Shown piece after piece: positions 19,549 through 24,547 of a stretch of DNA of 53,721 nucleotides. The DNA comes from a virus, in the UHGV virus genome UHGV-0138535. One strand, written 5' to 3'. The notes beneath the pieces were generated by a model. It made no database searches. It was given only the letters and a program-made list of their open reading frames with translations, and was not told where the DNA came from. The stretch's first letter is position 1. Every line of letters starts with the position of its first letter. Position numbers and translations under genes: made by a program.

Positions 19549-19578
19549 AAAAAAAACGGGGCTTATGCCCCGTTTTTT
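19549..19578. terminator. bidirectional intrinsic terminator
   Basis: AAAAAAAACGGGGC-TTAT-GCCCCGTTTTTT: GC stem flanked by A-run and T-run between convergent genes. Confidence 0.6.
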
Positions 19579-22500: not shown

Positions 22501-24547
22501 ATGAGTAGTTGCCAGCATCAATGCCATAAAAATCATAACTGTAATTCGTGGTTTCGTAGCTTTTAACTACAGCGCCTTCGGCGTTATACACGCGAATCTC
22601 AAAGGTCAGGCGACGCGTTGTCGTCTGTGTTTCCCATGTTGCGCGACATTGAACCGTTTCAGATCCAACGTTTAACACCTTCAGATTTTCAATGTTCGGC
22701 ACGCGGAAGTGATTAAGCGTGTCGTTATTGATCTCGAAGATTGCGCCATTATCGACTACGGCCTGCTTATGTGGATCATGCTGTGCGGCCTCGATGGTGT
22801 ATACGCTGTTATTTTCTGTTTCTGCTACACTGGTGATTCGACATAAAACGGGTTTTGCTGCGTTGGTTGATACAGCAAAAACAGTGCCGTTACGAATCCA
22901 CGCCGGGGCGGCTGCAAGGGTGATAATGTTCCCGTTAACTCCGATGATCTGGTGTTTTTTAAATTTACCATCGCTATCAAGTAAGCTGATGGTGTCGCCA
23001 GCCGCGATATATTCAGAATCAACCTTGTCGACCGTGATCGCTCTGCCATTGTTCGCCACGATGCGACCGCCTAAACGAGCGCCTGCGCGATTATTATCGA
23101 GGATCTCGATTATATCCCCCGGCGTAAAGTGAATGGCGTCACGGGCCATTTTAAATGTGAATTTTGACGGCTCGCGTTTCGCTGTTTCGATCAGCCATTT
23201 ACCAGCGCGGTGCGCTTGCCCGCGTGAAGTGCAACCGAACGCCTCCAACGTGGTTTCGTTATAACCATCACGGGCGATTAGTTTATCATCTGCGACATAT
23301 TCTTTTGATTGCTCCCAGCCGTTTTCAGGGTCAGTCCAGGATACGATCACGGCGTTGTAGCATTCTGCGCGTGCGATACTTGAGCGAGTAAACGCGCCAT
23401 CAACGACGTTTGCATTTGTGATGGTGGCGATTGGATCTTGTGGCGCATCAATCATCACGGTAAGACGTTGTCCGTCCCATAACGCGATACCACGGAACAT
23501 ACCTGCGATGTTATCCAGTAGGTCGCGGGCGCTCATTTGCTCCGTAATGTAAGCGTTAAGCGTCATGCGAGGTTCAAGGCCACCATAGCCATCATCAACC
23601 AACTGATCGCAGTATTGAGAAAGCACGTACAAAGCGCCATCATCAACATCAATGTAACCAGCATGTCGAGCAAGTCCAAAGCGCTCGTTTTTAACCAGAT
23701 ACCGGAAAAGCCATGCAGGGTTATTGGTATACGCCTTTTTAAATCCACCAAGCCATAAACCTGAATATGTGCGCGTTTCAGGGTTGTAGTTGTCAGGCAC
23801 ATCAACAATCAGGCCGCGAAGGTGATAGGTGCGGGTAGGCGTATCAGTATACTGATCATGGTCAATTACGGCGCCAGCTACAGCGGTATGAGGATAAGAC
23901 AGATTATCATCTATTATTTCGCTGTAACTACTCCACCGCGTATCATTCCGCAATAGATCGCCGTTGCTGTCTGGTGTTATGCGACGAACGCGAATATCAA
24001 ACGGTTTTTCATCCGGCGCTTTAATGATGTGAGCTTCCAGGTATTCACCGCTTTGTTTACCAGGGCCAATGTGTATGTCTTTAATCAGCGACCACGTAGA
24101 AGATGATGACGGTTTAACATCAACCATCAACATGACGGATGTATTATATTGATTGCCCTTTTCATCTGACTGAACGAGAGCATCAACACCAAGATTCAAC
24201 CTGACGCGGGTAACGTTTGGATCTGAAACAGTCCTGATTATTGGTGTGTCGTGAGTTACCTTTGCGTTGACAATAACGGTTGACTCAATGGCGTTAAAAC
24301 CATTAATCGGCGATTGGTCAGCCGTGCCGTTGCGCCAGGCTATACTAATCCCCGGAATTGATGTATTCCCGTTTGCGTCAGTAACAGGAGTGTCATTAAG
24401 CATCACGTCATTCAATGGCGCTTTCTGGTTTACCGGACCGTATATCGGCCCTTCGCTGAGAATATCTAAAACACGATAAAACTGTTTGTGATACAGGTTA
24501 TCGTTCAATAATGTTGGTGTTTTGGCTTTGCCGCCGCCGCTACTCAT
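19577..24547 (-). CDS. host-specificity / central tail fibre protein (lambda J-like) with long coiled-coil repeat extension
   Basis: 1656 aa; N-terminal two-thirds collinear with lambda J (TPDS...YHLRG...FGCTSRGQAHRAG...); then ~450 aa of tandem heptad-rich repeats and a C-terminal globular domain. Confidence 0.85.
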   Translation of the reverse strand: MSSGGGKAKTPTLLNDNLYHKQFYRVLDILSEGPIYGPVNQKAPLNDVMLNDTPVTDANGNTSIPGISIAWRNGTADQSPINGFNAIESTVIVNAKVTHDTPIIRTVSDPNVTRVRLNLGVDALVQSDEKGNQYNTSVMLMVDVKPSSSSTWSLIKDIHIGPGKQSGEYLEAHIIKAPDEKPFDIRVRRITPDSNGDLLRNDTRWSSYSEIIDDNLSYPHTAVAGAVIDHDQYTDTPTRTYHLRGLIVDVPDNYNPETRTYSGLWLGGFKKAYTNNPAWLFRYLVKNERFGLARHAGYIDVDDGALYVLSQYCDQLVDDGYGGLEPRMTLNAYITEQMSARDLLDNIAGMFRGIALWDGQRLTVMIDAPQDPIATITNANVVDGAFTRSSIARAECYNAVIVSWTDPENGWEQSKEYVADDKLIARDGYNETTLEAFGCTSRGQAHRAGKWLIETAKREPSKFTFKMARDAIHFTPGDIIEILDNNRAGARLGGRIVANNGRAITVDKVDSEYIAAGDTISLLDSDGKFKKHQIIGVNGNIITLAAAPAWIRNGTVFAVSTNAAKPVLCRITSVAETENNSVYTIEAAQHDPHKQAVVDNGAIFEINNDTLNHFRVPNIENLKVLNVGSETVQCRATWETQTTTRRLTFEIRVYNAEGAVVKSYETTNYSYDFYGIDAGNYSLGIRGRNDTGMKGAESIVDLVIGAPAAPVGVNWVPGVFQATVYPISRTTLTTDTSYEFYYSGETQITDPASITTKAQYTGRGHQWTFGGMNTGHTYYVYVRARNAFGVSDFVEASGKPTENFDEITDYVTKDVMNSKQFKEMVGDIKDLGDRTDLIESATNDLKTATDNLKTATDNLTNITDDLRTETDNLTIETGSIKADTDTLKKETEDLYKKVKENADDIGQHESRIDSLEVSSEKVGSELAQAKASLQNASLALINNSLAQTNTRVTLTAQYKKGRTETKAEIDRIDNVIAEEKKATAESLETITAEMNVMDTNLKGQISNVQRAVADEASARAEAINGVNASISNLDKKTDASVNRLDRAIADETSARTQAISDVNASISTLDKKTDASVKRLDKAISDETQARSDAITAVKADLTTLENNTNASVSRLDQAIADESSTRAQAISGISASLGSVKSEVDKNSDEIVQAKAGLQNASLALINNSMAQSKMSTVIEAKYRKGQRKTKAEIARVDTAIADEASARAEAISNVNASVSSLESKTDASVSRLDKAIADEASARAEAISGVNASISTLDSKVTSNVTRMDKAIADEKNARTDAISSLNSSLTSTINSKVSEVSTALSTHETSSAEKFGQISASFDDVNSSITEWSQAMATADEALSTRIDQLKVTINGNTTAIETTSKALTDFKGNVDASYSIKIATDKNGMKYATGMSLGLTGSGTNVQSQCIFLVDRFVLMTAAGGSYQTPFYVTNGACYIRDAWIRDASITTAKIAQQIQSTNYKAGSAGWMLNKNGNAEFNNVTVRGTVYATSGKFTGEIQATSGKFKGTVEAKSFVGDVANMGVGPDRVLGHNGSYSATITYKDSTDNALTKSVMLMATISLMSGEYRSTYNVTFSCGDKNKTISYYVPYGGCTLTVQCAFSGLKASDIIGKIYCPQTSSSEGYAYCTALYSPTMIVARGTGSFRTSTTA
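20600..22060 (-). repeat. in-frame tandem coding repeats inside J-like gene
   Basis: Repeated ~108-nt units (e.g. GCTTCTGCGCGTGCGCTCGCCTCATCTGCGATTGC twice) encoding AIS-VNASIS-LD-KTDASV-RLD-AIADE-SAR units; larger duplicated module KAGLQNASLALINNS. Confidence 0.5.

Follow-up and report, generated by a model that had tools for sequence, protein, structure and literature searches.

A predicted helical shaft of variable length in the J-like central tail fibre of a mEpimmI-type temperate coliphage

The mEpimmI group comprises the phages mEp021, mEp010, mEp013, mEp044, mEp515 and mEp554 (Front Microbiol 2025, PMC11893012). Their J proteins are reported to differ in size. The N-terminus is conserved, 'repeats of different length' are located at positions 950-1,475, and these give way to another conserved stretch before a terminus which is variable; as receptors the six characterised phages use either LamB or OmpA (PMC11893012). 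Here we describe the J gene of the UHGV virus genome UHGV-0138535, a stretch of 53,721 nt which is referred to as the window and to whose full length all coordinates apply. The gene, recognised by its open reading frame (ORF) as well as by Pfam and phmmer, occupies positions 19577..24547 of the minus strand and encodes, from an ATG start, a protein of 1656 aa whose layout fits the published one, with a conserved stretch between the variable repeat region and the variable terminus. The phage group and the variable J repeats are already on record, in one sentence, and the protein is a case of a known family and not a new kind. What is added here is the unit structure of the repeats, a register constraint, a series of alleles which differ by exact units, and the finding that the insertion is internal to J. 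The mEpimmI paper contains no definition of a 36-aa unit, a coiled-coil register, an exact-unit allelic series or a relation to pyocin shafts (PMC11893012).

In comparison to genomes of the mEp021 type the window is syntenic and 86-88% identical at the nucleotide level over both genome arms, and the N-terminal 3.3 kb of J are 84-90% identical. The window is a complete genome of a temperate coliphage of the mEpimmI group, circularly permuted with respect to the GenBank mEp records, and its J protein is the central tail fibre of a phage of this type. The heptad segment, the modules and the 36-aa units described below are likewise present in the mEpimmI J proteins. The window allele differs from them in having 3+3 units and in the type of its receptor-binding domain (RBD; cluster 1), which is found in none of the six characterised phages.

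The lambda gpJ protein (8iyk, 8xck, 8xcj) has in common with the window protein the hub, the FNIII and Ig domains (38% identity over aa 1-850), the straight fibre, and the fold of the C-terminal fibre and RBD. In contrast to the window protein, its FNIII part passes straight into the beta straight fibre without a helical insertion of ~500 aa, and its RBD has no detectable sequence similarity to that of the window. The J protein of ES18 also lacks the helical insertion. HK97 gp24 (J, 1296 aa) aligns over its full length; its RBD is 36% identical, and its helical block at 866-1042 matches both blocks of the window (BLASTP). However, HK97 has only this one, shorter block, and neither recognisable 36-aa units nor the LQNASLALINNS module are present.

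The central fibres of F-type pyocins (F2 PyoF10, PDB 25vf; F7 CFP) are J-like too and carry a helical shaft between FNIII and the beta part assigned to PF09327. The F2 shaft is described as a three-stranded coiled coil at whose kink the side fibres are anchored (PMC13455828). The window protein would likewise be a trimer, and kinks are predicted for its shaft as well. The pyocin shaft measures ~163 aa and tandem repeats are not reported for it, whereas the shaft of the window protein has ~530 aa and contains 36-aa units which vary in copy number.

Internal position of the insertion in J

The 1656-aa protein is a lambda gpJ-like tip attachment or central tail fibre protein, as already proposed in an earlier, sequence-only reading of this DNA. 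Its N-terminal half contains the Pfam domains FNIII-A_GpJ (aa 88-214), Phage-tail_3 (aa 335-492), Ig_J (aa 609-707) and Ig_J_second (aa 709-811), with E values from 1.6e-34 to 3.2e-15 which are all above the gathering scores. This part, the hub and the FNIII/Ig domains (aa 1-811; 22115..24547, on the minus strand like all parts of J), is collinear with lambda J 1-857, and phmmer matched aa 1-851 to solved lambda gpJ (8iyk_J) with E = 8e-187. The protein is labelled 'central tail fiber J' by PHROGs and is identical to WP_417652378.1. Immediately upstream of J, genes for Phage_min_tail, Phage_tail_L and NlpC/P60+JAB (K-like) proteins and a 176-aa gene in the position of I are arranged in the order M-L-K-I, and the RefSeq annotation of near-identical prophages concurs with the order M-L-K-I-J. 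None of the Pfam families matched aa 812-1362. PF09327 (Phage_Tail_Tip) covers aa 1363-1500 (E = 2.7e-40), and the ~155 residues which follow are without a family.

BLASTP aligned lambda J 1-857 with aa 1-850 of the window protein, which is 51% of its length, and lambda 841-997 with aa 1360-1525. The last Ig/FNIII domain ends at ~aa 811-850, and PF09327 starts at aa 1363. Because lambda J aligns on both sides, the helical rod is an internal insertion of ~500 residues between the last FNIII/Ig domain and the straight-fibre domain, and not as an extension beyond J. The collinearity with lambda J which the sequence-only reading had seen is real, but it comprises the first half of the protein and not the first two-thirds. 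The repeats had also been taken for a distal extension of J; this view had to be given up, since lambda J becomes alignable again beyond them.

The rod is followed by the conserved central straight-fibre domain PF09327 (20048..20461), past which the second lambda alignment reaches, and by the C-terminal RBD (aa 1501-1656; 19580..20047), which is supported by AlphaFold2 (AF2), Foldseek and BLASTP. A globular C-terminal domain had been expected after the repeats. The domain is there, and the structure prediction which had been suggested for it gives a confident beta-sandwich, but it does not adjoin the repeats as the PF09327 domain intervenes. Foldseek related the C-terminal AF2 model to two central fibre structures of lambda gpJ, 8xck and 8xcj (E ~1e-10). 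Besides its similarity to the C-terminus of HK97 J, the RBD is 33-37% identical to those of the LamB-using phages mEp010, mEp013, mEp044 and mEp554, and no match was found to those of the OmpA-using phages mEp021 and mEp515.

Repeat units, predicted helicity and length variation

From its N-terminal side the rod starts with a linker and a canonical heptad coiled-coil segment of the TDNLKTA type (aa 812-925; 21773..22114), which holds a 21-nt tandem repeat. Module 1 (aa 926-1010; 21518..21772; …AKASLQNASLALINNS…TAQYKKGRTETKAEI…) is predicted to be helical with a break or kink at aa 959-963, and is followed by repeat block 1 (aa 1011-1146; 21110..21517) with three full 36-aa units and a partial one. 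Module 2 (aa 1147-1200; 20948..21109), a diverged duplicate of module 1 with a predicted helix break at aa 1186-1190, precedes repeat block 2 (aa 1201-1308; 20624..20947), which consists of three 36-aa units; the first of these (20840-20947) is a hotspot of copy-number change. A non-repeat helical segment (aa 1309-1362; 20462..20623) leads into the beta part and gives the best alignment to solved J-like fibres, that of the F2 pyocin among them.

The six full units align with eight invariant columns and the consensus AIADEASARAEAISxVNASISTLDxKTDASVSRLDK, and a hidden Markov model of the unit scores 53-69 bits for each copy. The tandem units of about 36 aa noticed before are confirmed by this alignment, and their motif is the same consensus in circular permutation. 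The larger duplicated module was recovered as well, at a spacing of 678 nt (21030-21088 and 21708-21766). Together with seven DNA copies spaced 108 nt at 20679-21523 and with the 21-nt repeat, it bears out the range of 20600..22060 given earlier for the DNA repeats. The 21-nt repeat, which encodes the TDNLKTA heptads, was the sole call of Tandem Repeats Finder (21977-22027); the 108-nt units escaped this program because their DNA sequences have diverged too far, to identities of 44-71%. The hotspot unit and the unit adjacent to it have an exact in-register tract of 43 nt in common. Within the unit E5 and R9 are invariant, A, S and T together make up 44% of the residues, and columns 2, 13, 16, 20, 23, 31 and 34 are hydrophobic, while the intervening core positions are small or polar.

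A profile of the 36-aa unit gave only 39 hits at E <= 1e-3 among 1.84 billion representatives, PTR-repeat fibres and two much longer J-like proteins included, and the motif is thus not unique. The two proteins, P0103 (1922 aa) and P0123 (2411 aa), have FNIII-A_GpJ close to the N-terminus and PF09327 close to the C-terminus, and would imply helical insertions of roughly 900 or more residues.

The region from aa ~831 to 1362 is predicted to be almost entirely alpha-helical and of the coiled-coil type, which is in line with the coiled-coil fibre of the sequence-only reading. Its 532 residues (aa 831-1362) do not include a single proline. AF2, run on aa 1150-1656 with an alignment of 98 sequences, returned one unbroken helix from aa 1151 to 1352 with predicted local distance difference test values mostly >90, followed by beta structure and the beta-sandwich mentioned above. 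A single-sequence AF2 run on aa 800-1362 gave a helix over aa 802-1359 with breaks solely at 959-963 (YKKGR, in module 1), 1186-1190 (KGQRK, in module 2) and 1310-1314. Hydrophobic residues recur with a periodicity of 3.52 in aa 831-925 and of 3.60 in aa 926-1362, repeat block 1 included. For the latter region the power is 6.2, compared to 0.58 +/- 0.20 and a maximum of 1.5 in 500 shuffled sequences (z ~28).

At a periodicity of 3.6 the 36-aa unit contains ten core positions (7+7+11+11). One unit corresponds to ten helical turns, and the gain or loss of a whole unit would therefore preserve the register of the coiled coil. Solved lambda gpJ amounts to 15 chains in 5 entries, and the three chains in each entry indicate a trimer. 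By analogy to these structures and to the F-pyocin fibres, the rod of the window protein would be a trimeric coiled coil.

The J genes compared for copy number come from seven phages, from ten prophages of E. coli and from about twenty IMG/VR contigs, with ~35 complete alleles. In the genes which are at least 99.6% identical to that of the window, and which have an identical RBD, the hotspot unit (aa 1201-1236) is present 0, 1, 2 or 3 times. Without it the protein has 1620 aa (L026 and L027); one copy gives 1656 aa (the window, five complete E. coli genomes and L022-L025), two copies give 1692 aa (L011 and L021), and three give 1728 aa (L010). The additional units are tandem copies which are 100% identical. 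Older variation is seen across the ~35 complete alleles, which have 0-7 units per block, one or two modules, and a helical region of ~377-746 aa. The heptad segments of the relatives are 111, 118, 139 or 153 residues long, and all differences are multiples of 7. In this segment and in the near-identical alleles only register-preserving insertions and deletions were seen, namely multiples of 7 aa or 36 aa. The alleles of strains MIN12 and 2-331 differ by one unit, and MIN12 carries a hybrid unit, which is consistent with an unequal crossover.

Since near-identical relatives differ by whole repeats, the length of the fibre seems to change by recombination. Recombinational length variation of the J shaft, which had been proposed from the single gene, is strongly supported on recent as well as on older timescales by these alleles, in which near-identical genes differ by exactly 108 nt and a hybrid unit occurs. 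The comparison of relatives which had been recommended at that time shows that the copy number varies and is not invariant. The window RBD is paired with 2 to 8 units, and the OmpA-type RBD with 4 (mEp515) or 11 (mEp021); shaft length and RBD type assort independently, which is relevant to host-range prediction and to the engineering of fibres. A literature search for copy-number variation of tail-fibre repeats found nothing relevant.

Further observations concern the compared genes. In repeat block 1 a patch of 419 nt (J nt 3054-3472; window 21076..21494) holds 13 of the 16-18 nucleotide differences between the window and the otherwise near-identical alleles of MS 21-1, GN04592 and LP-26, and most of these substitutions change the amino acid. 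Gene conversion was considered as the source of the patch and rejected, as no sampled allele and no other repeat copy matches the window version. The C-terminal 507 aa have close homologues (P0001-P0062) most of which are annotated as 'partial' and lie on short contigs. This suggests that short-read assemblies are routinely interrupted at the J repeats, with 'partial' J annotations as a result. Some of the homologues have the precomputed Pfam label PF28217.

Explanations for the variable shaft

It is quite probable, in our view, that J contains a register-constrained trimeric helical shaft which is altered in length by unequal recombination and holds a swappable RBD off the tail tip. In a trimer of this gpJ homologue, an alpha-helical coiled-coil shaft of ~530 residues would lie between the last FNIII/Ig domain and the beta straight fibre with its RBD. 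The shaft would be composed of the canonical heptad segment and two blocks, each opening with a kinked module of ~55-85 aa which is followed by tandem 36-aa units. Because of the ten core positions per unit, whole units would lengthen the rod without a change of register, and each would add about 5.4 nm. In-register unequal homologous recombination or slippage between units could account for steps of 108 nt in the blocks and of 21 nt in the heptad segment, independently of the type of RBD which is attached. The shaft may then determine how far away from the tail tip the RBD is held (in the fully extended state roughly 55-110 nm), and by analogy to the pyocins its kinks may dock a side fibre.

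Several points weigh against this explanation. The parallel bundle of three helices is extrapolated, and the AF2 models are of the monomer only. The similarity to the F2-pyocin shaft is weak if the helical region is used alone (25vf, E = 0.1), and a far stronger match (E = 3e-29) derives mainly from the beta part. No sequence homology of the helix itself to F2 pyocin is claimed for this reason; among the solved structures the same helix-only query matched the J-like fibre 9l9p_S with E = 2e-7. Fully extended, the shaft would measure ~80 nm in the window protein, and in mEp021 it could reach ~110 nm. This is long compared to the tail of the mEpimmI phages, which is reported as ~130 nm, and the published description from transmission electron microscopy mentions no such long fibre. 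The shaft may therefore fold back at the predicted kinks. Finally, the six characterised mEp phages have 2-11 units and all form plaques on E. coli K-12 (PMC11893012), so that on this host the length of the shaft is tolerated rather than critical, and an adaptive tuning of the reach is hypothetical.

The tolerance on K-12 is equally what would be expected if the copy number simply drifts by recombination between tandem repeats and any in-register length is accepted, without adaptive meaning. Identical RBDs which are paired with 2-8 units fit to such a drift, as do the newest expansions, which consist of 100% identical copies and for that reason are very recent and possibly transient. The older units speak another language, as they have diverged at the DNA level to the extent given above but have kept the 36-aa frame and the eight invariant residues, which argues that the array has long been maintained by selection. 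The restriction to register-preserving changes in the heptad segment and in the near-identical alleles also speaks against drift, and we regard drift without function as possible, though the less favoured explanation. That the copy numbers merely reflect a collapse or expansion of repeats during assembly is very improbable. Many database homologues are indeed 'partial' and end at contig edges, which suggests that the repeats break short-read assemblies, and the exact tandem arrays of 216-324 nt are longer than short reads. However, the 1656-aa form is represented by five or more complete E. coli genomes and by several IMG/VR contigs, the form with 108 additional nt was found in two independent sources (L011 and L021) and the form lacking 108 nt in two sources (L026 and L027), and the older variants involve diverged units which are easily resolved by assemblers.

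A more far-reaching alternative assigns an active role to the shaft, in which a metastable coiled coil refolds to a beta-prism upon receptor binding, pulls the tip of the tail down to the membrane and opens this tip, so that the number of repeats would define the stroke and the stored energy. Such a switch was described for the central fibre of the F7 pyocin, whose 163-residue shaft converts to a beta-prism on cell binding, whereupon the tip opens and the tape measure protein is ejected (PMC12874032, 2026 preprint). The shaft of the window protein occupies the same place, between FNIII-2 and the PF09327 beta part, and the E = 3e-29 match to the F2-pyocin fibre joins aa 1204-1482 with residues 911-1185. 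A pattern SxSxxMxxLxS recurs along the F7 shaft, where buried Glu-Arg bridges are described as well (PMC12874032). Patterns of this type or their reverse occur 29 times in aa 831-1362, compared to 7.7 +/- 2.7 times in shuffled sequences, and the forward motif is present once in every 36-aa unit; the regular expression used here is, however, looser than the published structural alignment, and the matches are not independent as the units are repeats. The invariant E5/R9 pair (i,i+4) resembles the Glu-Arg bridges of F7, and the high proportion of A, S and T in the units also fits to a switching shaft. The authors of the preprint predict the switch in 21/24 siphophage central fibres, other mEp/HK phages included (PMC12874032). 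On the other hand, this work is a preprint, no such mechanism is used by lambda and T5 (PMC12874032), the helix by itself is only weakly similar to the pyocin shaft as stated above, and ~530 residues are more than three times the size of any demonstrated switch. The monomer AF2 model built with 98 sequences gave the helix only, a result which is unable to decide the question. A role in fold switching is plausible for the window shaft, though unproven and on the whole somewhat unlikely. Still more doubtful is the variant in which the entire ~530-residue shaft acts as a spring, converts from a three-helix rod to a stacked beta-prism, and reels the tail tip over tens of nm to the outer membrane. 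If it were true, the 36-aa unit would be a quantum which fits both folds, with exactly ten helical turns and one motif-bearing strand, and recombination would adjust the stroke of the phage injection machinery in discrete increments.

The natural allelic series, in which the RBD is the same and one unit is present 0-3 times, is well suited to a study of the role of length in the central fibre of a siphophage. Among the possible effects of shaft length are the reach through O-antigen or capsule, the adsorption rate and, if a fold switch of the pyocin type applies, the injection stroke.

Neighbouring genes and other reading frames

A side-fibre gene (17298..19094, minus strand) encoding 598 aa is located downstream of J, and by analogy to the F-type pyocins its product is a candidate partner of the shaft. 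Over its N-terminal ~155 aa this protein resembles solved phage depolymerases (7vyv and 7lzj, E ~4e-28) in their anchor region, and over its middle part a 'head spike fiber'. Relatives have quite different fibre genes in this position, among them one of the S74 peptidase / pyocin-knob type and a DUF6453 gene. The integrase gene (15484..16776, minus strand) lies within ~250 nt downstream of a small ORF which follows the side-fibre gene. No tRNA genes were found in the 53.7-kb window.

Another small ORF (19235..19537, plus strand), convergent with J, has a product with a signal peptide which starts with MKKLIVACILSALSFGAFA. This ORF is situated at the site of the Lpp superinfection-exclusion genes of the mEpimmI phages (PMC11893012), and at this site a conserved 81-aa product is annotated in the prophages (WP_000734009.1). 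An ORF of 234 aa antisense to J (20385..21089, plus strand) was rejected as a gene, because it is stop-free only in the close allele group of the window and not in other relatives. The stop-free stretch grows with the number of units and is a by-product of the codon composition of the repeats.

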